Of a stretch of 64,000 bases of DNA, positions 5,011-53,039 are shown one piece after another; within the stretch, counting starts at the first letter, position 1; every line of letters starts with the position of its first letter. Under the pieces are notes generated by a model. The model was not told the origin of the DNA. It saw only the letters and a list, made by a program, of their open reading frames with translations, and searched no databases. A program made the position numbers and the translations under genes. The stretch is from Podarcis erhardii. Lineage: Eukaryota. Location of the stretch: assembly GCA_964252035.1 (NCBI GenBank), contig OZ176211.1; one strand, 5' to 3'.

Positions 5011-5236
5011 CAGTGGTACCTCAGATTACCTACGCTTCAGGTTACAGACACCGCTAACTCAGAAATATTACCTCGGGTTAAGAACTTTGCTTCAGGATGA
5101 GAACAGAAATTGTGCAGCAGCGGTGCAGCGGCAGCAGGAGGCCCCATTAGCTAAAGTGGTGCTTCAGGTTAAGAACAATTTCAGGGTAAGAACAGACCTC
5201 CAGAACGAATTAAGTTCTTAACCCGAGGTACCACTG
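5011..5236. mobile_element. Tigger/pogo-like MITE (TcMar)
   Basis: TIRs CAGTGGTACCTC...GAGGTACCACTG with TA on both sides (5009-5010, 5237-5238). Same family as 29103-29323 and 45539-45736. Confidence 0.85.
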
Positions 5237-7239
5237 TAGTTTAAATGTAAAAGGATGTGCTGAAACATGGTTGAAATGGAAAGTGTTTTGTTCATCCCCT
5301 GCTCCTGTCACATTGCCAGGAAACAGGCCATCAGCCGAGACAGCGTTGCATCTGAATTTAGGCTTGTGGTTTGTTTCTCTCCAAACTATGAATGGTAACC
5401 AAGGTTTGTTATTGGCTCAGTGTTTGTGGCTGGTTTGGAAACCTAAGGTTTAAACTTTAGAGTGAAGTGCAAATAGCTTTATCTTCATCAGTTTGCTCAT
5501 GTTTGAAATATTACCTTCCTTGAACCAAGCTGGCAGGTCTAGATTACTCAATGTCTGGGTAATGTCAGGCAGAAAGGCACACAGACAACAACAGTTAATA
5601 AACTGGGGGGGGGGGCAGAGAGTCATTACAGACAGAACCCTTTCCACATATCTTTAGGAATAAACTGCACCGGGTGCCATATTATCCTAAGCTTCAAGGG
5701 TGCCACATTTGAGTGAATTCAAAGGTAGGAGTTGAGTGAACACAAAGCATTACTGAATACCTATCAGCATCCCTTGTACGTATATTGAGTTTGGGCTACT
5801 TTGAGTTCCAGCTTCCTTCTAGAGCCTCACTGGTACATATCTGATGGCATCAAAAAGAGTGACATTAATGAGACTTCCAAAGATATCCAGCTTGTGTCCC
5901 ATGTTTCAAATAAGCAGACACAAGCAAGCATGGGGTATCAAAAATTCTCACACATTTTGTGGAGTAGTTGTAAAATCTTTCAGCTGCATTTATCACTTAG
6001 CCTGGATTACTGATATGGCATTATGGGATTCCCAATGACATATATAATGGAAGTGTAATATACTTTCATCACTGCTGGTGTCCAGCACTATCAGGGCTGT
6101 GGATAATGGGGCAGCTTCCTACAACAAGAATGGAGATATCAATGCAGCATTCACTGAATAGTCTGGTGGCAGTACAATTGTCAGCTGCTCTGGAACTCTA
6201 GGAATCTATTACCACCTTTGCCTACCTTGTATACTCTATCTTTGCATTCTTTGAATTAAAAAGTCTATTAGTCATCCACACGCCTGAACCCTTTCTCTCT
6301 CTCACTCTCTCTCTCAGTGGCTACTGACTGGTGTTTGCACAGCTGGAGCCATTGGCTAAAGAGAGAGTACCTCATCAAAACAAGGACAGGTGGCAGCGCC
6401 TCTAGACATAATGTACATTTAGAAAACATTACACCAGACACAAAATTAGAATGAGTTCTATGGAGTCGTTGATCAAAGCGATTGAAATGGTGGACATATC
6501 ATTAGTCAGAAGTGCCTTTATAGTTAAAGCTATTTTGTAGAATAAGCAAAGCATAAAAAGCACAAGAACTATATGGAAATACAAGAAGATAGTACTGCAA
6601 ACCAAGAAGAAAGCTATCGCCAAAAACCAGATGGGTTTTAGTTTAAAGTAGCTTTGTATATTGTGATTGAGTATTCATTTATTCTCACAGAGAGACTACA
6701 AGAACCAAACTAACTAAAAGTGGAAGAAAACCATGATATTCAGATGATAGGTATAACTTTTTAATACTGCACATTTATTCTCCAGATGTCTGCTCAGTAA
6801 GTGAAACCATACCTAAAATCAGCTTCTGGTGCTGTTTAGCACACATATTTTAAGAACCTACTTTAAATATGCAATATGCTGTCTTAACTTTGGATATGCT
6901 TTCTCAGTAATAAGATGCAGAGATTGCTAGCCTAGCAACTATGAAGAAAGCTTCATCTCATTGATTTGTATTATATAGAGTTCACTTAACAGCTGGATCT
7001 GAATCTTCAGAGCACTGTGTTAACCCATCGCCAACTTATTTGAACGTCACTTAAGAAAAATACAGAAGGAGTTTGATGTACTATCTATAAAATATGCATC
7101 ACAATCTATCCAGTAAATGCGTAAGTACTTCTATGATGGGCTCAGAGACTGGCTAAGCTGAGGAAATATGACAAAACTGGGACTGAGCCCACCATCTTGT
7201 CTGACTTTAGGATGGCAGACTTTTAACAACTTTGAACTT

Positions 7240-8420: not shown

Positions 8421-8471
8421 GTTTAAATGCATTTTTATTTCTATTGTATTAAGTCTCCTGTAAACTGCTTC

Positions 8472-8555
8472 GGCCAGTAAAGCGAGATGAGCGCCGCAAC
8501 TCCAGAGTCATTCGCAACTGGACTTAACTGTCAGGGGTCCTTTACCCTTTACCTT
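8472..8555 (+). mobile_element. 5'-truncated Sauria SINE
   Basis: Last ~85 nt of the SINE with ACCTTT tail; exact 11-bp TSD TAAACTGCTTC at 8461-8471 and 8556-8566. Confidence 0.9.
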
Positions 8556-23134: not shown

Positions 23135-23270
23135 CAGGCATAGGCAAACTCCAGCCCTCCAGGTGTCTGGGACTACAATTCCCATCATCCCTAGCTAACA
23201 GGACCAGTGGTCAGGGATGGTGGGAATTGTAGTCCCAAACATCTGGAGGGCCGGAGTTTGCCTATGCCTG
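23135..23270. mobile_element. Palindromic hAT-type MITE (136 bp)
   Basis: TIR CAGGCATAGGCAAACTCC; 58-bp inverted arms with 4 differences and a 20-nt spacer. Flanks CTCTACAC and (CA)GTCTACAC resemble an imperfect 8-bp TSD. Confidence 0.9.
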
Positions 23271-27350: not shown

Positions 27351-29102
27351 CAGTTTCTTCAGGAGTTCCAGAAGTAAATCTAGCAATTAAGCTATAATAG
27401 CCATCTTAAGGCTGATAATTAGGTATAAGAAAGAACATGAGAGAGGATTAGTGTTCAGATCATGTTCCAAATGTTTCTTAATTGGCTGTTTGTAATCAAT
27501 CCTGATTGCAGGAGGCTGTGATTTGGCAGACAAAAAGAATTTAAAAAGTTTTTAATACTATTTTCCCCTTTAGTTGACTTGGATGTAGTATTTAGGTCAG
27601 GATCCAGGGGGTATGATTTCAAACCAAATGTATTTGCCAGCTATGGGAATGGTTCAAAAGAACATGAAAAGTTCCTCTAAAGCTATTTATTTGAGATTTA
27701 AATATCGTATTCCTCAGAGCTTACTCAAACGAGTGAGCTGAACTCAGGCAAAGTCTTACAAAATGTTTTGAAATTCAAAGTCTCAAGGTGATTTTTGTCT
27801 GCCATTGGCTTATGGTTTCATTAAAGTCCCATCGGTAGCTCTTGGTTATATTCACAGTAATGGTGAGTTCTTAACATTAAATAAGAAAACAATTATTCAA
27901 ACAGAAATGCCAAATGCCTTCCTGCTACCATTAGGAACAAGAAATATCTGGTCACAGGGTTAACGAGATCTATGGACCGATCTTGGGAATGGATTCTCCA
28001 TCTCTGTGGCAAATTGCCCAACCTCCTTGGTGTATTTTCTATTAGAACCTACAATCTAAGTTGGATGCCAGGATCATCATGCAGTGAGTTTCTCATCCGC
28101 CAAAAACATGGATTTGTCCCTGTAGCAGACAGTTCAGTTTAGGGAAGCTTGCATTCTCTGCAACCAGAACTCTCCTATATATTCCCTTAAAAGGATCTTT
28201 CAGGATATCCTATCCTTAACAGAGTCCTTCAAGTGATGCTTGGTATCATCTAGAAAGTTTGTTCCATTGCTGGAACAAGTTGTGAAGATTTTCCTAATTT
28301 ATGCATTGCACCCCTGCCTATTACTCGCACTGTTTTGCCACTTCTTTGCACACAGCTGTATCCACCTACAACACTAAACACCACCTTTCATGACACTGAA
28401 ATGGCAAAGAAGTTGTTACTTCTAAGCTCAGGTATGAGTTGGGAATTATGTACTGTATTGCAAAAGCTTTACAAAGGCAATTCTTTAGCTAAAAGCTCTC
28501 TTTCCCAATTCAAATCTATCTCCATTAAAAAAAAAATTAAGGAAGAGGCTTTTCTCAACAGGTACATCTTCCAGTTGCTGAGTGTTTTTTGACATTCCCA
28601 CAAAACCCTTGGGAACTTTGTGTCACAATCCTACAAACTTTTATCAGTGTGTATATTCATATCTGGGCTCAAATCCAGAATGTCTGTACATAGATTTATA
28701 ATAGACAATGCAAGCTATTCTATTACAAAACAGGCTGCCAAATACTATAAGTCAAAGCGCTTTTCTAACTTCTCTTAAATATTTCCTAGAGACAAAATGC
28801 AAAAGTGAAAGTCTTAACACTGCATTGTGGTTGGAGATGAGCAGCTGCACATTATGCCATACACAGAGAGAGAGATCCCAGTGCATTTGCTGATGAAGCC
28901 AAACGGTAGTTTAGAGGCTTGTTACACCAGCAAATAAGCAGCGACCACAACAAGGGCATAAACGCTCATCTAAACATCACCACAGAATCAAGACAGGGAA
29001 CAATCTGTCACCCCTTCCACCTCTGCCAATTGCTCTTTCCCTTTTATTCCAATTTTAAGTTCAGTTCACCCCATATCTGTACCAGGTTCCAAACTCTTTT
29101 AC

Positions 29103-29323
29103 GTACCTCGGGTTTCATACGCTTCAGGTTACAGACTCTACTAACCCAGAAATATTACCTTGGGTTAAGAACTTTGCTTCAGGATGAGAACAGAAATCGT
29201 GCTCTGGCGGCGCGGCAACAGCAGGAGGCCCTATTAGCTAAAGTGGTGCTTCAGGTTAAGAACAGTTTCAGGTTAAGAACGGACCTCCGGAACGAATTAA
29301 GTACTTAACCCGAGGTACCACTG
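29103..29323. mobile_element. Tigger-like MITE with eroded left TIR
   Basis: Internal sequence matches 5011-5236; right TIR CGAGGTACCACTG followed by TA. Confidence 0.8.
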
Positions 29324-30891
29324 TATTTTATTTTAAGAAACTCTCCATCAAAATTCATATGCCTATTTGTGTGCATTTATCCTAATATATGCATTTTTGC
29401 AAGAAGTTCTCTGTAATACGCTTCAGGTTTTGCGCATTTCCATCCCTTTTTGTGCACACTTTCCCCCAGTACGTATATGTTTTTTGGCTGAATAACTAGA
29501 AAATTGAGAGTAGCATGAATTTTGAAGGACAGCTGCCTTTTTATTCATCTATTCATTGGGTTCTCTATCCCTAGTCTAGAGCAGGGCAGGTAAGGTCAGA
29601 TGGCTGTTTCTCTTCAGGGTGGTGGCATAAGCAATGCAAGCTGGTGAAAAGACACCATCCTTGGATGGTTATTCATCAGCCACTCCTTCTGGTTCTCAAA
29701 AGGCTGCTTCCTTGCTTGCGCAGAGGGAAAACTTGCCCACCAGTCATTCTCTCTGCAGACCCCACAATGGGGCATGTCTCTTGTTGCCCCCTTCTGCCAA
29801 CGTAGGGCATTTTTAAAGGACGGCAGCTGTTCTCCACCTTCTGGACAACAACAACAAAAAACCCTTTTATCTTTGTTAATGCAGAGGGAACCAATCATTT
29901 GGAATGTGTACTGATTTAAAAAAGATGAGGGGGGAAAGTTATCTAAACTAACAAAGCAAAACAAAAGAAATGAAGTGGTAATTCTATCCATAGGAGACAT
30001 GTTACTGCTTAAGAGAAGAGCGTATAAAAGGCTCGGTTCTAACTGAAAACGGAGCAGCAAATGCCACCCATTTGCAAGTAATTTCAAGTACAGTGCTTAT
30101 TGTCTTTATGGAACTAGTCCGTTCTGCATTAGCAGGGTTCCCCCAGAGAGCTGTGAACCTAACAGCAATGACACAGTAATGGTTGTGTTCTCATGTGAGG
30201 AGGGGACTGGGATCACTTTAAAGGCATCTTGGGCAGTTTGAACTTGTAGACCCATTACTTCCCCCCCCCCAAAGGTTGCTCCTGGTTGGAAGTATCTGGC
30301 ACATAGCTTCTTTTCCACTGTGCGGTTTCTTTTGTTTTAATGACATGTCTGGTTTTGCTTTGGTGTGGATTTGCTTGTGTGTGTTAAGAGTTTTATTTAT
30401 TTATTTTGCTAAGCGAGCAACTTTGGCGCACCCTCTAGTATCGTTTTTTTTTCTTTTTGCAGGGAGGAGGGGTGCTTCTCAGAGCAGTTGTAAAAGGTGT
30501 CATATGTAGGTTTCACCCTTGCCTGTGTAAATGTTTTGTTTGTTTTTAAAAAAAACACCCTTCTTTCCCCTGCATTTTAACGCCTCTTTAAACTGACCCA
30601 AAGGATTCTAGTCAAAGTAAATGCCAGTGAAGAAAATGAGAAAACAAGAAAAGTAGGAGCAGCTATCTGAAAGCAGTTCTGCTGTTGTGTTTGAGGCTGA
30701 TGAGGACTAGGAGATAAATACATTGGATGAAATTCGGAGTATATGGCTAGTGATAATTATGTAAAGATAATTGTGGAATGGGTTGTATAGGTTTATCTGA
30801 GGTGGGGCAGCTTATGGGAAGAATGACCCAACTTCAATGAGAAAAGGAGTTTAATAAGATTCTGGATAGAGTTGTGATATTATGTCCCATA

Positions 30892-31239
30892 AAGTAAAGT
30901 ACCCCTGACCATTATGTCCAGTCGTGACTGACTCTGGGGTTGCGGTGCTCATCTTGCTTTATTGGCTGAGGGAGCCAGCATACAGCTTCCGGGTCATGTG
31001 GCCAGCATGACTAAGCTGCTTCTGGCGAACCAGAGCAGCGCATGGAAACGCCGTTTAGCTTCCCGCCAGAGTGGTACCTATTTATCTACTTGCACTTTGA
31101 TGTGCTTTCGAACTGCTAGGTTGGCAGGAGCAAAGACCGAGCAACGGGAGCTCACCCCATTGTGGGGATTCGAACCGCCGACCTTCTGATCGGCAAGTCC
31201 TAGGCTCTGTGGTTTAACCCACAGCGCCACCCGCGTCCC
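30892..31239 (-). mobile_element. Sauria SINE, full length
   Basis: Reverse complement starts GGGACGCGGGTGGCGCTGTGGGTTAAACC with intact B-box GGTTCGAATCC. 13-bp TSD with 1 mismatch: ATTATGTCCCATA (30879-30891) and ATTTTGTCCCATA (31240-31252). Confidence 0.95.
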
Positions 31240-33570: not shown

Positions 33571-33951
33571 GTGATGCGGGTAGCGCTGTGGTCTAAACCA
33601 CTGAGCCTCTTGGGCTTGCCGATCAGAAGGTCGGCAGTTCAAATCCCCGCAACGGGGTGAACTCCCGTTGCTCTATCCCAGCTTTCCAACCTAGCAGTTC
33701 AAAAGCACACCAGTAGATAAATAGGTACAGCTGCAGTGGAAAGGTAAACAGTGTTTCTGTGCGCTCTGGTTTCCGTCACAGTGTTCCGTTGCGCCAGAAG
33801 CAGTTTAGTCATGCTGGCCACATGACCTGGAAAGCTGCCTGTGGTCAAATGCCAACTTCCTTGGCCTGAAAGCGAGATGAGCGCCGCACCCCATAGTTGC
33901 CTTTGACTGGACCTAACTGTCCAGGGGTCCTTTACCTTTATCTTTTTACCT
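33571..33951 (+). mobile_element. Sauria SINE, different subfamily
   Basis: Head GATGCGGGTAGCGCTGTGGTCTAAACCACTGAGCC, B-box, central TCCGTCACAGTGTTCCGTTGC insert absent from the 1923 copy, and (ACCTTT)-like tail. Confidence 0.9.
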
Positions 33952-36900
33952 GCTGAGTTGAAGTAGCAGCATATAAGTTTGGACACACAACATCCCTGTT
34001 CAGGAGATCATATCTTGGCTTAATATGCAGAAGACTGCATGATCACCATCGTTTCCTTCCTTCCTTCTCAGCATTCTGTGATATGCTGCTAAGTCTTTAA
34101 TTAACCACAGTTTAACTTCCTCTTTCATCCCAACTGGGAAACTATGGCTTCCAGAGTTATCGTTGGTTTAAGATCCTTGCTTTTTCTGAACCTGGTGACA
34201 TTAGTTTCCTTGTTTGCACGAAGCGAGAAATTATGGTTAATTGAAGATGTCTGAGTTTATCACAGAATAATGAGAAGGAAGAAAGAAATGGCCTGTGTAC
34301 ACAGGCACAAAGCTTTTTCCTAGCTCAGTTTATTAAGCTAGAAAAGGATCATCTTATGAGGTCAGTGGCTCCAGCACTAGTGCAAAGGGATGTTTCTCTT
34401 TCCTCTGGCATGGGACCCAAATCTTCTCTCCCCCCCCCCTTGCATTCCAACAGCTGAAGCAGCAGAAGAAAAAGACAGTTTTGGCAGTTTTATTTATAAG
34501 TATATGTTTATATGGGTGCCTGTTCACTGATGAGCCACAGCTATCTCCTAAGAAAGCTTCTGGGCTCACTAGCGTAAGAAAGGGAAAGACATTTAATCTT
34601 TTGCTGTCTGGAGCTGTTTTCTTGCTCCCCACTCTCATCTCTTTGTATTTTCTGAAAAGGCCTTGTTGCAGCAACCCTTGAGTACAAGTCAAACTCTGAT
34701 GAAAGCAACTTTCAGTGGCTGTAACAGCATCCTCCTTCTCCGCCTCCCCCAACCGCCTCTTGATTGCTGTAGACATCTGCCTTTGTAAACACCGTGTCAG
34801 AGTCCAGCAGAGATGTTTTATACTCATTGTTCCTCCAAAATAAATAAAAGAGGCACAGACGATATGAACTGGATGAAGACATCCCATTGCTAATAACTGA
34901 GCCATGTTTGTAATTGCTAATAACTAAGCTATGTAGCAGTCTGGGAACACTGCGAAAATGTCGATCTGGGCTGAGTAAAATGACACAGATGGCAACCTTA
35001 TTGCATATTTCTCTGAAGCCGAAGCTGAAATTTCACTTGGGAGGTGGGGGGAAAGAACACCATGATTTACAGACACATTCATATTGGTTTCCAGACTTCA
35101 GTAAGGCAACACAATTATTTTTAAACCTTACGTGATATTCATGCTACCCAAAGAATGAAGTGCACTTGGTAGATGTTACTTTTCACTTAATAAAATGAAT
35201 AATTTGTTGTTGTTGTTGTTGTTGTTGTTTTGCTGCCATAGCAAGGGCAGTTGTCTGATATTGTGATCAAAGGCAGGAAAGAAACACTTGATGAGCAAAT
35301 CATACTATGGTGCTGTCATTTTCAGAGGGCCTAACTGCAAGTGCTGAAACTCCTGTTTCTGCATGCTAAGAATTACTGCTCAGCAAGGAACATGGAATGT
35401 GTCCCAAATGAATGGCATCTGTCTTTGGTGTGAATGTGGGCAGTTCTTAGATGGTTTGGAAATGGTTTTAAATTGTTTTTTAAAAGAATTTTTTAGATGT
35501 TTTAAATATGTTTTTAGTTGTACTGTTTTAACATCTTGCTTTTTATCATTCTGGGCTCCTTTGCATGGAAGGGCAGAACAGAGATTCATAAATAAAACAA
35601 AGTCATGCAGATTGCACACCTCTGTTTGCAATTAATATGCTTCCAAGACTGTTATTTGTATCCTGATGCTGACACTGCCTTTTGTTAGGCTTGGAAAAAA
35701 ATCAACGGCACCCTCTATTACTCAAGCTGCAACTTGAAGTCGCCTTTAAAAAATTGAAATGGTGTTTTATTTTAAAAATAGTGGATACCAGAGCTTCCTT
35801 CTTATCAAAGAAAAACAACGCTGTGTCTTAAGAAGACCTTTCCTGTTTATCAGATATAAAGTTGCCTTGAAAATGTCTAGTCTGCTGTAGACTTGGCCTT
35901 TCGAAAGTAAAATGATAAAGGGTAACTTGTATTGGTGTTAACTTGAAGTTGGGAAGGGAACTTGTCAGGGATGAGGTCTGGGGACTAACAGATGTTGCTG
36001 AACCCATCAGCCCCATCCAGTATAGCCAGTGATCAGGGATGATAAGAGTCCAGAAACATCTGTAAGGCCACAGGTTCCCCATCCCGGCTATATAACATGA
36101 GAACATAGTGGGTAGGGAAATCCAGAAAATAATAGTGCCGTGGCCCCTTCAAAAGGAAGAGAGAAAAAACTCACTTTTTTATCAGGTTTATGGGGGGAAG
36201 ATCATTAATTTAAAGCTTCTGTTTTCCTGCCTCTGTACAACAATAGCACTATTAAACCCCACATGTGCTGCACTAAATTCTGTTTCTTATATCAAGTTAT
36301 TGATAACTCATGTCAGTTTTAAGACACTAAAACCTAAAAGATTTCATTTTCTGCAGTTTTAGGTTATGAATACAAAGAGTGCTAGATAAGCCAGCGCCCG
36401 CTTGTTCTAATGCTCCACTGCTGTTTTACACATTAGACATTTTAAGCTGTTAATTTTCAGGATTTTATTTTTTTAATCAGCCATAAATAATAAATAAATC
36501 ACGTTTTGGATGCAATCTATTCTAGGAGCAAATTGCTTAAGACACTTTGCTTAAGAAATTAGAAAAACAGCATCGCCTTTCGAAAGATGTGGGAGTAAAA
36601 TGGATTCTTAAGTGCCTTCTTACACTATTTATAAAAGCAAGATCAACCATGGATCTAAAAGTAAATCTAACCCATGTGTTGCTATCTGAAAACGAATAAA
36701 AATATATTTAACTGTTACCAAGGCTATGCCAATTGCAATGAAAATAATGGAAGCATAGACTATGTTCTCAATAGCACACTCCACTGGCTCACTTAAGTTG
36801 CACCAGCTGAAAATTTGAACCACACTTGAATACAGCATTTGCAGTGACTAATGTCCTGGCCTTGACTTCTTCATGTGTGGCAATTTGTATTTAACATGAT

Positions 36901-39002: not shown

Positions 39003-39221
39003 AAAAAATGGTAAAGGACCCCTGACAGTTAAGTCCAGTCGCAAATGACTCTGAGGTTGCGACACTCATCTCACTTTACTGGCCGAGGGAGCCGGCGTTT
39101 GTCCGCAGACAGTTTTTCTGGGTCATGTGGCCAGCATGACTAAACCACTTCTGGGAAAACCAGAGCAGCACATGGAAACGCCATTTACCTTCCTGCCAGA
39201 GCAGTACCTATTTATCTACTT

Positions 39222-41140: not shown

Positions 41141-42719
41141 TACAAGTTTGTGAGAGTGATTAACATGAATTTAAAACTTGTGCCACAGGCAGATATGTCC
41201 ATATAATCAATGCATCCACCATCCTTACAATATGATTTTCATAGTCCCTCTCTCCCAAACATGTTGTCTTTATGTTATGAAGGAGTTTTAGAATCACACA
41301 TTTCCTCCTCAAACTGGGGGTTGGTAGAAGGTGATTTATTTTCTTTAAGTGCCACCATGTAGCTAGAAGTGAACCAGTTGCAAGACAAACACACACAATG
41401 AATTGTTTGGTTTTTGTTAAATACATTTTCATCCACCCTGCATTATTTAAGTCTCAGGTCCTTGTGAACGTGGACTGAATTGACAAGAATGTTGAAAAGT
41501 TAATGTCTTGATAATAGTGGGAAATTTGAAGTTGGCTGCTTTATGGATCGGTTTGTGCTTGGAAAGCTTTTAGAAGTTGTAGATATAGGTTGCTTGCTTC
41601 AGACACCCAGGGAGTACGCTCTTTGTGAAGGCACACATCATTTCTCTCCCACTAAAAGTGCTACTGGCAGAATAAGTGTGGTATTTAATCTATAACCTTC
41701 TGTGTATTGCCCCCCATAGTGTCGCACAACACAGGGAACCAGAAGAAAAAAGCGATCAAAAAAAGACAGTTAAATGTCAAGCAATGGGGCTCTGTTTTAA
41801 ACTATTTAGCTGAGATGCTCTCTTGTTTTTAACAATAGCATGGCATGCCACAGAAGCAGCCTCCCTTTCTGCTCCTTTTCTTGTTCTTCTTATTGGGCCG
41901 TGACAATTTATTCCAAAAGCGGATTTCTGCTTTGCTACATTGGCACTTCACAGTTCATGTGAGCAACTATTGAAACTGTGGGCATACATTTGTAAATATT
42001 AATGAAATATTCAAGGATATTTGAAGCTTGCACAAGCTGCAGGATTTGTGATAGGCTCTTTAGCACTGACAGAAATATGAGTAATTTGACAAGAACTGGA
42101 AATGTGCCTTAGGTGATGCTGATAAGAGCCGATGAAAAATAACGAGGCTTATCTGTAATTCTTTTAAGCAATTCAACTTTAAGAAACCCATTTTTATAAA
42201 ATTCACATACATATGCTAAAGCACTAAATGGATATGCAACAACAGATGTGCTATAGCTTCCTTGAAGTTATACATTTGTTAGCAATGTAATCCTAATTGC
42301 ATTCCTAAAAACATTTTGCTAGTAATTATCCTTGTGTTTGTCAGTGATAGAGATCAGTAGGATACGCTCCACAGAACTCTTTTGTTGGAGATTAGTACAG
42401 CTGATCCTTGTGGTGCATGGGTGCTATTTTGTCATCTCTTTCTGCTTCTCCGCATGTCTGATGGGGAGCAACTGCAAGATTGTCAGGGCTGGTCATCTGA
42501 AGCAAAAACAGGCAAAGAAGTATTGAGAGCCTGAATGCAACCAGCCTTCACTCAAACAATACCGTGCTCAAACTGAGGAGCCAGGCCAGAGTCTGGGACT
42601 TTATAGGATCTAGTGGAATCCTATTAGCCTCGTGACACTGCTGAACTAGAAGTTACAGGATGGTCCTCTGACCACTGCATTAGTGGCACCTAAGCACCCA
42701 GAAGTTCTTCATAACATAG

Positions 42720-43299
42720 GGTCAGGAGTGGCTCAGGAATAAAAAAGAGGAGTGTCCATGAAGTTAACTTTTTGTTCAAAGAAACCAAAACAGCACAGGC
42801 CTAGTGATCACAGCAACTCTTCCTAGTAGGACTTGCCCCAATAGGCTGTTGCAAGGACTGAAGGCCCCCGCCTTCCCTCCTCTCTCTAAGACTCCTCCAG
42901 TGGTTCCTTCCCCAGCAGCCTAAGGCTCCATCACCTTGTATTTCATTGTGCTGCCCTCTTCATTTTTCTAAGTGTCTAAGAGACCAGTGGGGAGGAGAGC
43001 TGGTCACAACAGGAAGAGGAGGCTCCCTGGATTCTTCAACGGCCTGCCTCATCGCTGCATCTTGGACCCTTCCTCTTCTGCCTCTGATTCTGGATTGTCC
43101 TCTGCCCCAGCTTCTTCTTGCTCACTAAACCCTGTTGCTTCTTCAACGTCTGACACCTCGTCCTCCCAGCTGCTCCATCTTCTGCCTCTGACCGTGCATC
43201 ATTGTCCCAGCACCAGTTCCCTGGCTCTGAGCCTTCTTCCCTGGGGGTTCCCCAGCTAGTGCCTCCCACCACTCCTCTGCACCCAGCCAGTCCATGACA
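42720..43299 (-). mobile_element. Solo LTR (580 bp), probably Gypsy/Ty3-type
   Basis: Reverse complement starts TGTCATGGACTGG and ends ...CCTGACC (terminal CA mutated). Exact 5-bp TSD CATAG at 42715-42719 and 43300-43304. Confidence 0.8.
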
Positions 43300-45538: not shown

Positions 45539-45736
45539 CAGTGGTACCTCGGCTTACAGATGCTTCAAGTTACAGACGCTTCGGGTTACAGACTCTGCTA
45601 ACCCAGAAATAGTACCTTGGGTTAAGAACTTTGCTTCAGGATGAGAACAGCTAAAGTGGTACCTCAGGTTTAGAACAGTTTCAGGTTAAGAATGGACCTC
45701 CAGAACGAATTAAGTTCTTAACTCAAGGTACCACTG
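45539..45736. mobile_element. Tigger-like MITE with internal deletion
   Basis: TIRs CAGTGGTACCTCG...CAAGGTACCACTG followed by TA; same family as 5011-5236. Confidence 0.85.
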
Positions 45737-45871
45737 TACACAACTGAATAAACAGATTCCGCAACCCCCTGCGTGCTCCCCAAATTTGCTCTAAATAGTT
45801 GAGGGGCCTTCCAGGTCAGATTGGGGGGAGGCTTTGCAGGGGAAAGGAGATGAATACAAATCAATGGTGCA

Positions 45872-49000: not shown

Positions 49001-49423
49001 TAAGCTGCAATCCTGTATACACTTACCTGGAAATCAATAGAAATTAAATCTAGATTAGATGACCCTGCAGAGGATCACAGTGTCTTCAGAACTGAACATT
49101 ATTTGTATGACAATATATTACCAAAAAAAAAAAAATATGCAATGATATATAATTTTAATGTTATCTAAGTGTTGCTGTCCGCAGTAATTGTGTGCAGTAA
49201 ATGTGTGCATGCCAGACATACTGGCGATATGGACATATAGGGGAAGTCATTAATCCATACTAATGATGCATACCTCAGAGCAATGCCATGTATACTCTGG
49301 AGTCAATTCACATGGAGTTCATTACAGGGCCTAAGCCCAAGTAAAGGTGTAGAATAATGGAGCCTTTTGAGTGCTTAGCCATTGGCCTTAATGGTCTTTC
49401 ATGTTTCTGAATGGAATTATTTA

Positions 49424-50779
49424 CCGTATTTTTCGCTCTATAACACGCACCTGACCATAACACGCACATCGTTTTTAGAGGAGGAAAACAAGGGGAAAAA
49501 CATTCTGAATGAAACAGTGGATGTATCATTTTTGGGCTTCATGCTGTGGCCACAGACATGTGATCTGATGGTGAATTTGGGGTGACCCAATGCAAAAATC
49601 CTGAATTCCTGTGGATCCATGCTTTGTAACCACGTTTTTGCACCATTGCAGCCCCAGGCAACAGTGGGTGCGTGATTTTTTTGGTTCAGGCTGTAGCCAT
49701 GGACATGCTATGTGATCTGAGGGTGAATTTGGGATGATCCAATGCAAAGATCCTGAGAATCCCTGTGGATCCATGCTTTGTAACCACATTTTTGCACCAT
49801 TGCAGCCCCAGGCAACAGTGGGTGCGTGGTTTTTTTTGGTGCAGGCTGTAGCCATGGACATGCTATGTGATCTGATGGTGAATTTGGGGTGACCCAATGC
49901 AAAGATCCTGAGAATCCCTGTGGATCCATGCTTTGTAACCACATTTTTGTACCATTGCAGCCCCAGGCAACAGTGGGTGTGTGATTTTTTTGGTGCAGGC
50001 TGTAGCCATGGACATGCTATGTGATCTGATGGTGAATTTGGGGTGACCCAATGCAAAGATCCTGAGGATCCATGTGGATCCATGCTTTTTAACCACGTTT
50101 TTGCACCATTGCAGCCCCAGGCAACAGTGGGTGCGTGATTTGGGGGGGGCAGGCTGTAGCCATGGACATGCTATGTGATCTGATGGTGAATTTGGGGTGA
50201 CCCAATGCAAAGATCCTGAGGATCCATGTGGATCTATGCTTTGTAACCACATTTTAAGTGGGGAGCGAAGGAAAAACAAAGAAGGGACATGAGAGGGGTG
50301 TGCAGAGAAGCAGCTGGCTAAGAATGCAGGAGAGGGATTTAACGGAGGGAGGAAAGAAAGGCAAAAGTTTCCCCCCACCCAAGCCAGCCATATCTCTCTC
50401 TCTCTCTCCCTCCCCCTCTCTCTCTCCCTCCCCCCTCTCTCTCCCTCCCCCTCCCCCCCTCTCTCTCTCCCCCAGCAGCACCCGAGCACAGAGAGGAATT
50501 CCCCTCTGCTTGCCTGGAGGGGAGGGGCTTTCCCTGCTCTTTGTTCCGTTTGAGCAAACACAGCAACGAAACAGAGGAGGGTGGGCAGTAAGACCCTGAG
50601 GCAGAATGCAGGAAAGCAGCCACTTCCTCTTTTCAAGTTTCCCTTCTAGGAGACGCGCGATTTGATTTTTGCCTGCTTTTTCGGCTCCAGGGACCACACA
50701 TTCGCTCTATAACACGCACAGACATTTCCCCTTCCTTTTTAGGAGAAAAAATCTGCGTGTTATAGAGGGAAAAATACGG
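49424..50779. mobile_element. Non-autonomous TcMar element, Tc2/Kanga-like (1356 bp)
   Basis: 26-bp TIRs CCGTATTTTTC(G/C)CTCTATAACACGCA at 49424-49449 and 50754-50779, 1 mismatch. TA TSD at 49422-49423 and 50780-50781. Subterminal ATAACACGCAC copies at ~49456 and ~50709. Confidence 0.9.
49555..50255. repeat. ~154-bp tandem array (~4.5 copies) inside the Tc2-like element
   Basis: GTGATCTGA recurs at 49560, 49712, 49867, 50021 and 50175 (periods 152, 155, 154, 154); units are highly similar. Confidence 0.95.
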
Positions 50780-53039
50780 TATATACTTATCAATCATGTT
50801 CCTGCATTTATAGATCATCACTCCCTGATTACCCTGGAGGAAAATTTCCATAAACTGTATTATAGAGCTGTAATGTACACTGACAGCCTGACTCCTCCTT
50901 TAGCCTCCTGTTTTATTAAACAAGAGCCCTGGCCAAAGTGCTCGTCATTGATTAATCTCAACAGATAAAGTATTTCAAATGTTTGAAATGCATTTTTAAA
51001 GGAAAAACTGATAGTTTTTCTTAGCTGAGTTTCTTAGCTTACAGCCACACATATCTTAACTAGTAATTGCTGATAAACAGGTGTTTAAATTATTCTGGCT
51101 GACGTGATTCATAGTTCTTACTATCATCAAAAGGGTCCTCTAAATTTCCATGGAACGTCAAAGGATCACAAGGATATCGTTCTCATTATGGTACAAACTT
51201 TATGCCCGGCGCTCATTAGATATTCCAAGAAAGGGACCTGATGATTCCATACGTACCAATTAAGAGACCTTATTAGTGCATTCAGCACTACATGTTAAAC
51301 AGCATCAAACCAAAGGCAAATCATTAAACCAGTCGGGCACATCAAAAGCAACACTTAATGGGTTTAGTAGCTTTTTTGTTTTGTTTTATATAGATACATT
51401 GGTTGTGTTCACTCTGTTCAGAAAATTGCACTAATTGGTTGATTATTATTTTTAATGCTTCTGGTCTAAGTCCTATTATAGTTTTTATTTAACCCTTGAG
51501 GGTTTCCAGGTTTCTAGCTTACTAAGTGGCAGCTCTTATTGAGCCTTCATTCATTCAATCATTTGTTTATTCTCTTTATTTACAATGTTTGTAAAATGCT
51601 GCAGTTCAACATACGGTCTCCAAGTGGTTTACATAATAAAGCCAACAAGTAAAATGTCACAAAATTGTAAAAACAGACGTAAAATTGAAATCATGGGCGG
51701 GGGAGAGACCTTAAAAGATGACAACCGGATGTGAATTGAAATGATCTATCAATATAATGGAATCAACTCCTCATGAAAAAAAATTTAGAGGTCAATTCAC
51801 AAAAAAGAAGGCATGGAGCCATTAACCCCATTCAGAAAATCCTGGAGAGCTCCTGCCACTCATTTACACGATACTGATCCAGATGAATCAATGGTCTGGT
51901 TCAGTATAAGATCGCTTCCTATGGCCTTCTAGTGATTGCTTCTCCCTCCTAGCATGCATTTCTTCAATGCCCCATAGAAAGTCACTGCCAAGCAAAGTTG
52001 TTAACAAATCCCAGTATTTTACAGAAACAAAATGATCTGTAAAAAACAAAACAAAAAAATGCAATGAAACTGGAGAATGGATAAATACCAATGAATCAGA
52101 ACGTTGAAAAATGACTTGGTAATTTCATAAATCTTGTGACTTTTGAGATACACAGCCATTAAAATCAGACTGGGTTTTTTATTTTGCAGAGAACAGTGGA
52201 AAGTTGGCAGAAACTAACGTTTTGCAGTGAGGTAGGGAGGCGAACAAGTTGTAAATGACTCTAATGTCTTCCATATGTCACATTTTTACTTGGGGACTGG
52301 ATCTGGAGTAATTAAAGGCATGTGAATTTCCTATAAAGACTGAACTTCACCAGCTTGACACTGGAAAATGCCATCAAATCTGAAGTCTTTAAACTGCTAA
52401 GTGTTTTCTCTCCCCACACCACCACCCAATTTGAAATTCTTGCATTTCGGACCATTTCTTCTTTAACAAAGGGAAATCTTATTTCCAGGGCTAAAAATAG
52501 CATTTACTATTACTATTACTATTACTATTATTATTCATGTAGTATAGAAACATTTCAAAATTATAAAACTATTCTAAAAACGGTCCTCATCTGTAGTATA
52601 ATTTAATAATCATATTAAAGCATGAGTGGAAAACCTGTGGCTCTCCAAACGTTGTTGGACTATGGCACCCATCATTCTTGACCACTGGTGATACTGGTTG
52701 AGCTGGTGGGAGTTGGGAACCATCAACATTGAGAGCGCCACGGCAGCTTTTATTTTAAAAATAAAGAAATCAATTTATCCTAATATAATGCCATTACAGT
52801 TATAATATAATTACCATTATTTTAACCAATATAAGCATTTTTGTGTGTGTTTACCCCTGTCTTTTGTAGAACTGCATGACAAAATTTGGGGAAGTGCAAA
52901 TTTTAAGTTTTAAAGTTCGTCTATTGGTGTGGGAAAGGCAAATAGTATAAATTTGTGTTACAATGCAGCCCAGATCCCACCTCCCCTAGTTAGAGGAGAA
53001 GGCGTGATGTGCAATTGAGGAGCAGAGCATGCTGTGGGT

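Follow-up and report, generated by a model that had tools for sequence, protein, structure and literature searches.

MMTV sag and HIV nef are accessory genes that overlap the U3 of the 3' LTR, and they are separate genes with their own mRNAs. In plants, the gag-pol frame of group A CRM chromoviruses and of some Reina and Bingo elements extends into the 3' LTR, and the part encoded by the CRM-A LTR is the C-terminal end of the integrase, for which a role in directing integration is proposed, according to the excerpted text of two papers (PMC3059260, PMC3605345). Self-priming is given as a mark of the Tf1/Sushi group in an excerpt of PMC6317226, and the excerpted tables of PMC3601003 give the ends of Sushi-type LTRs as TGTYANR ... 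CNTNACA. At the protein level, R-R-S-x-R is the stretch with which HMGN2 and Dsup engage the H2A-H2B acidic patch, as seen by cryo-EM, and yeast Dot5 uses RRSARIAT (excerpts of PMC12487698 and PMC13347269).

We analysed here a stretch of 64,000 nucleotides of Podarcis erhardii DNA (the window), which contains a dead solo LTR. The broken, formerly selected frame in its U3 was probably the C-terminal Pol/integrase tail of a chromodomain Ty3/Gypsy retrotransposon.

The solo LTR and its broken reading frame

An earlier note on this DNA had recognized a solo LTR on the minus strand, which we recovered from 43299 to 42720, with a TGTCA start and the sequence CTATG on either side. The features of the insertion are the following:

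42720..43299, minus strand: solo LTR of 580 nt from an old high-copy family, recognized by its TGTCA start, its 5-bp target-site duplication (TSD) and its copies in the genome
43300..43304, minus strand: upstream copy of the target-site duplication CTATG
42715..42719, minus strand: downstream copy of the target-site duplication CTATG
42886..43298, minus strand: broken U3 frame, about 137 codons long, with in-phase reading from LTR base 2 to the TAG at 42888-42886
43293..43295, minus strand: ATG at LTR base 5, probably read as an internal Met and not as a start
43068..43295, minus strand: Trp-studded acidic part of the frame, in three frame pieces
42976..43067, minus strand: Ser/Pro-rich part of the frame
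42916..42936, minus strand: site of a basic RRSxRL-type motif, broken, with a stop here in the window copy
42720..42870, minus strand: predicted non-coding R/U5, the U3/R border being placed only by analogy with young elements
near 42776-42771, minus strand: degenerate poly(A)-signal site, where other copies have AATAAA

The CTATG duplication is perfect and the last LTR base deviates from CA. No gag or pol match was obtained in the window or in the flanks of the solo LTR, so that no internal region adjoins it. Both junctions of the insertion were crossed by contigs from two DNA-like runs, corresponding to two organisms, and the contigs of the putative RNA runs that matched the LTR were mostly other copies.

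When the animal's own genome (1.5 Gb) was searched with the DNA of this LTR, its family, hereafter the focal family, returned 4154 first-look candidates, and the 39 other copies scored showed 76-80% identity. The protein search for the frame gave 7360 candidates in the genome, of which 150 were scored. The copies start with TGTCATG and have TGACA-type ends, CCTGACA in many, and a five-base TSD matching at 5/5 or 4/5 positions was found in 15 of the 36 copies with an intact 5' end. The terminal branches average 0.12 substitutions per site, which indicates that the family is old.

In comparison with 84 other natural copies, the window copy presents four frame changes, near 43242, 43168, 43067 and 42975, and two stops in its last frame piece. 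With four frameshifts and two stops it encodes nothing now, and it is a dead insertion. The five peptide pieces read in the earlier note were all found in the order given there, in alternating frames, and the ATG that it placed 5 nt inside the LTR is at element base 5 (43295-43293).

Several other repeats were seen in the window. In the 3' direction, 80 nt beyond the solo LTR, there is a second piece bounded by TGTCA...TGACA and about 157 nt long (42481-42637, minus strand); it has no evident TSD and no match in the other loci examined, and may be an LTR from a different family with an internal deletion. At 49415-50788, a 154-bp tandem array (49558-50295) stands between 35-bp inverted repeats, and the whole resembles a non-autonomous DNA transposon that contains a minisatellite. 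SINE-like dispersed copies, which we take to be the Sauria SINE, were found at 1923-2266, 8465-8550, 30896-31239, 33609-33954 and 39006-39221, a MITE-like family at 5011-5243, 29098-29330 and 45539-45738, and a hairpin with 58-bp arms at 23135-23270.

Coding signature of the U3 frame

A total of 85 natural focal copies were aligned and compared pairwise, with the codon phase set from 25 natural open stretches. The family frame is open, as the earlier note had supposed: none of its 134 codon columns shows a stop in the majority of the 85 copies, compared with 2 and 5 such columns in the shifted frames. The tree separates two subfamilies of 49 and 29 copies, and the 7 intermediate copies were left out of the contrast between them. 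Omega was estimated with transitions and transversions treated separately and with 20 CpG-prone columns removed. Under these conditions, comparisons within subfamilies give the focal frame an omega of 0.82 (0.68-0.96), and the net divergence between the two subfamilies gives 0.26 (0.09-0.70). When only the copies found by DNA search were used, the values were 0.86 and 0.24, giving a net range of 0.24-0.26, or about 0.25 with a 95% interval of 0.08-0.70. The shifted frames gave 4.7 and 1.2, with wide intervals. When transitions/transversions and CpG are left uncorrected, a net ratio of 0.41 (0.25-0.66) is obtained versus 0.64-0.67 within subfamilies, its upper bound meeting the within value. 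The dN/dS that the earlier note had proposed to compute between subfamilies is thus about 0.25 and not about 1, the uncorrected estimate being weaker. The near-neutral omega within subfamilies corresponds to decay after insertion, while the net divergence reflects the active parents, and hence purifying selection during their activity.

The phase of the indels, also raised in the earlier note, agrees with this selection. Indels common to at least 4 copies are multiples of three in 6 cases out of 9, compared with 56 of the 184 private indels, and the six most widespread ones (at least 7 copies each) all preserve the frame; in R/U5, none of the 3 shared indels does so. The focal frame is therefore a real coding sequence that was under purifying selection while the family was active, and the frame of 130-140 aa first noticed in this LTR is borne out as a formerly selected one of about 137 codons.

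The Pfam search of 4 natural focal stretches (E up to 1) gave nothing meaningful. A profile of the 25 natural stretches, run against 1.84 billion proteins, matched only 13 short proteins; the 8 that were looked up are all single-member clusters, two of them hypothetical Podarcis predictions. Gene calls made on decayed copies are expected to give such clusters, and neither a conserved stand-alone homologue nor a domesticated gene was indicated. Two Podarcis lilfordi 'hypothetical proteins' (P0001 and P0004, NCBI/UniRef) contain pieces of the LTR frame and are likely false gene calls or exonised copies. No longer protein containing the frame was present among 828 candidates, which is weak evidence.

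Pol frames running into the 3' LTR of related elements

The focal gag/pol or polypurine tract (PPT) junction was not found in the flanks (1.2-1.5 kb) of copies L001-L064, L115-L144, L276-L353 and L354-L383, and five junction patterns, flank sharing among copies and a chromodomain-first search gave no focal internal region. The recovery of full-length elements suggested in the earlier note was thus unsuccessful, and hence there is no focal RT to classify. A guessed focal self-priming junction had 39 matches in the genome versus 60 for the control, none of them focal. Two sets of candidate junctions were rejected: the recurring matches to a G-run followed by TGTCATGGATGC belong to another repeat, presumably CR1-like 3' ends, and 22 exact subterminal matches are copies of one duplicated segment without pol.

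As no internal region was found beside the focal copies, the intact LTR elements of the same genome were examined instead. Nine elements with a long frame overlapping the 3' LTR, chosen from 20 loci around integrase matches, were phased. In these young elements Pol has the order PR-RT-RNaseH-IN-SH3-(chromodomain) and continues through the PPT and nearly all of U3, 102-232 codons into the 3' LTR. LTR base 1 is Pol codon position 3 in 8/8 computed elements, the ninth (L073) also reads through, and the phase of the focal frame is the same as that of Pol in these 3' LTRs. Pfam detected the chromodomain in L073 (Chromo, 3.8e-13) and gave no chromo match in L065 and L068. The young tails are acidic, then Ser/Pro-rich, then basic, which is the layout of the focal frame, and their dN/dS is 0.22-0.41 (8 overlapping pairs, 3 families), with 0.07 for the RT-IN core. 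In related elements, acidic stretches studded with Trp are likewise present in the Pol linker that precedes the LTR. These young Gypsy families (L065-L084), with LTR-encoded tails of 100-230 codons, have matches that cluster near contig ends and on contig C19.

A complement of 7-12 nt to the sequence following the 5' LTR was found inside the LTR, near the Pol stop, in 5/6 young elements. This position of the self-priming complement indicates that the tail fills U3 and that, in a 5' or solo LTR, it precedes the transcription start. By analogy, the focal frame would also lie upstream of the transcription start, which counts against an ATG-led accessory protein.

The frame may nevertheless have been made as a separate protein of about 137 aa, or as an optional extension of Pol, a reading that we regard as unlikely. 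Pol would then stop at the TGA that ends the PPT, and translation would enter the U3 frame through re-initiation at the ATG, from a spliced RNA or after a one-base ribosomal slip in the G-run. This reading draws on the ATG at LTR base 5, kept in 46 of the 54 focal copies covering it (two main subfamilies), with a purine at minus 3 and a G at plus 4. By the Kozak rule these two positions make a good start context, and the ATG could serve re-initiation if the tail were optional or separately made.

Family Y (L258-L263, e.g. L259:2316-7187, minus strand), a young and abundant chromodomain Gypsy family, bears on this point. Its LTRs start with TGTGATGG and share with the focal LTR the ATG at base 5; the LTR pairs are 99% identical in most copies. 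The tail has 117 codons and ends in PRRSARLKA. Although the ATG is present, the tail is fused to a Gag-Pol of 1608-1674 aa in 4/6 copies examined, where the ATG is an internal Met of Pol. The two other near-intact copies (L258 and L262) are shifted at the junction, at the polypurine G-run. Since both shifted phases occur in these near-intact copies, the G-run of the PPT is plausibly an indel hotspot. A hand count of the chromodomain-first search gave 49 rows with open frames of at least 1590 aa and 7 rows of 1500-1530 aa. The self-priming complement, of 8-10 nt, was present in 5/6 elements of the family. The family Y protein, tail included, already has a UniRef entry, under the name of a Gypsy integrase-like protein from Podarcis muralis, and the protein search for relatives of the tail returned only Podarcis muralis entries and one weak distant match. 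A protein profile of the focal tail scored the tails of Y, S, L065, L068 and L081 no better than shuffles.

At the DNA level, closer relatives were found. Five LTRs starting with TGTCAGG, thus with AGG in place of the ATG, scored 66-180 bits on the focal DNA profile, compared with at most 3.4 bits for codon shuffles, and they preserve the same residues in frame as the focal family; by these scores they are homologous to it. The sixth AGG-type candidate (L355) was rejected as not homologous with the same profile. A decayed AGG-type LTR start was also observed in a segment repeated every 120-130 kb or so near several chromosome ends (L354-L377).

The LTRs of the S/W clade share 12 of their first 13 bases with the focal LTR, carry EEWW and SPR-RR/SP-TR motifs, are without the ATG in nearly all copies, and are situated behind chromodomain integrases. 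The focal DNA profile gives just 2-14 bits for 6/10 S/W loci, and the link of this clade to the focal family is only suggestive on sequence grounds. The tail of family S is constrained, with an omega of 0.34 (0.21-0.60) for L178 against 25 copies. In the decayed S/W junctions, 3 of which were read by eye, the chromodomain frame enters the LTR in frame in 7/15 (L210, L211, L214, L223, L238, L299 and L348); among the 8 out of frame, 7 have one offset and 1 the other, several with a stop at the LTR edge. A set of 21 automatically called junctions fell into the three phases as 7/7/7. S/W junctions shifted at the polypurine G-run were seen at L176-L178, L212, L213, L216 and L217. The idea that family S is always out of frame (3/3) was weakened by in-frame junctions found later.

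The shifted junctions with a shared offset could be due to a mutation bias or represent a real tail-less form. The lopsided 7:1 distribution is unexplained and, together with the constraint on the S tail, keeps alive an optional or separately made tail. These junctions are, however, old and carry other breaks, and the S and AGG relatives have no ATG at all. The suggestion of the earlier note that the ATG starts an accessory protein as in MMTV was not supported: the phase is identical to that of Pol, the same codon is an internal Met in family Y and it is AGG in the five homologous LTRs.

We therefore retain the C-terminal Pol/integrase tail as the probable nature of the focal frame, its arrangement being inferred from the young elements. 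Focal Pol would have run through the PPT and across the U3 of the 3' LTR, and the frame would have been translated only from the full-length genomic RNA, in which U3 is 3'-terminal. The thousands of solo copies would then be the product of recombination of one LTR with the other, and the decay of the frame in them is almost neutral. The tail itself would be a long, acidic, disordered linker ending in the basic RRSxRL motif.

The ends of the focal LTR, with a TGTCATG start and in many copies a CCTGACA end, match the Sushi type TGTYANR ... CNTNACA. The Gypsy order of RT and IN with a C-terminal chromodomain is present in the young relatives and in S/W, the focal family being known from its LTR alone. 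By relation to these elements, the focal family is likely a Ty3/Gypsy chromovirus of the Tf1/Sushi group. We consider it very improbable that the LTR comes from a true endogenous retrovirus of class III or of spuma-like type, with a U3 accessory protein like MMTV sag or HIV nef. Class III and spuma-like endogenous retroviruses also have a 5-bp TSD, the frame is led by an ATG and no RT is tied to the focal family; the TGTCA/TGACA ends, the phase and the layout nevertheless fit the chromodomain Gypsy elements of this genome, in which LTRs with the same 12 of 13 first bases stand behind chromodomain integrases. Least credible of all, and already largely refuted, is a frame that is an illusion of purine-rich (GAG/GAA/TGG) promoter DNA: the 5' part of the frame is indeed 71% purine, 30% of the private indels are multiples of three anyway and the third-position excess is marginal alone (0.001-0.089), but the low net omega is confined to the focal frame, no stop is fixed in 134 codons, the widely shared indels keep the frame and coding counterparts are proven in young families.

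The basic motif and comparison with known systems

RRSxRL is present as such in 3/85 focal copies (L026, L118 and L122), as RRSLRL or RRSFRL; SxRL is retained in 36 more, 46 are outside the search pattern, and the window copy itself has no readable RRSxRL. The two positions before the motif serine are highly variable among the copies (stop, Gln, Trp, His or Arg), and this variation resembles the decay of methylated CpG-containing codons. The basic RRSxRL C-terminus announced in the earlier note thus stands for the family, where it is intact in these three copies and is met again as RRSARL in family Y, and is broken in the window copy. The R-R-S-x-R core is present in 6/6 family Y tails, and RRSxRL appears in 0.045% of the shuffles of this tail (rate 0.00045). 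RRSARL at the same place in family Y is meaningful because the motif had been named beforehand, although the protein profile of the focal tail scored the Y tail no better than shuffles. Among 5 tails checked besides the focal one, RRSxRL was absent from 4.

In comparison with RRSARLSA, the focal motif differs at positions 4, 7 and 8 and that of family Y at position 7. Pfam gave no HMG14/17 match in the 4 natural focal stretches, none of which spans the motif site unbroken. Judging from their sequences, the tails bearing the motif are not HMGN proteins. The RRSxRL motif is predicted to bind the H2A-H2B acidic patch as do the motifs of HMGN, Dsup and Dot5. Such a basic end might dock there and, together with the chromodomain, tether the integration complex to nucleosomes, a prediction that we make with some reserve; a role in nuclear localisation or DNA binding is the alternative. 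In a wider, still tentative proposal, the Sushi-type elements of lizards would carry in U3 an integrase tail of 100-230 residues, ending in at least two families with an HMGN-type arginine anchor, so that the integrase would read both a histone tail, with its chromodomain, and the H2A-H2B acidic patch, with RRSxRL; the focal tail could even have been set free as a small stand-alone chromatin protein via a start codon just behind the Pol stop.

The choice of insertion sites by vertebrate LTR retrotransposons is poorly known, and if the integrase of a young, abundant family does carry an acidic-patch motif, this would give a direct handle on it. There would also be a parallel to the CR motif that plant centromeric elements encode in their LTR, and retrotransposons would join the users of the HMGN motif. 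A Pol tail in U3 would explain why thousands of lacertid solo LTRs resemble exons and yield spurious 'hypothetical proteins'. In the titles and abstract openings covered by the literature search, neither a Pol tail inside the LTR of a vertebrate element nor an HMGN-type motif in a retrotransposon integrase was described. Pol running into the LTR is known from plant chromoviruses, and, within this coverage, the vertebrate case and the HMGN-type integrase motif are apparently undescribed.

The likeness to MMTV sag and HIV nef is a coding frame overlapping the U3 of the 3' LTR. The lizard relatives differ from them by the in-frame fusion to Pol and by a start codon that is dispensable in homologous LTRs.

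With the vertebrate Tf1/Sushi elements (V-clade), as presented in excerpts, the focal family shares TGTYA-type ends and a 5-bp TSD, and its young relatives share the chromodomain integrase and the self-priming primer-binding site. The excerpted texts of PMC6317226 and PMC3601003 mention no Pol tail inside the LTR, and the comparison concerns a focal family represented by its LTR.

With HMGN, Dsup and Dot5, as far as the excerpts describe them, the lizard motifs share the residues reported to contact the acidic patch and a disordered protein with a long acidic part. In contrast to HMGN, the lizard motif is not the full RRSARLSA, has no Pfam HMG14/17 match and is placed at the C-terminus of an integrase, where its binding is a prediction.

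The plant CRM-A elements are alike in that the Pol frame enters the 3' LTR, which in the lizard is seen in the young families and in 7/15 S/W junctions, the phase of the focal frame being the matching one. In CRM-A, according to the excerpts, a CR motif inside the LTR replaces the chromodomain, whereas the lizard elements retain a chromodomain before the PPT. Unlike the CRM-A elements, whose CR motifs were compared by their description in these excerpts, the lizard elements have an acidic tail of 100-230 aa with a basic end.
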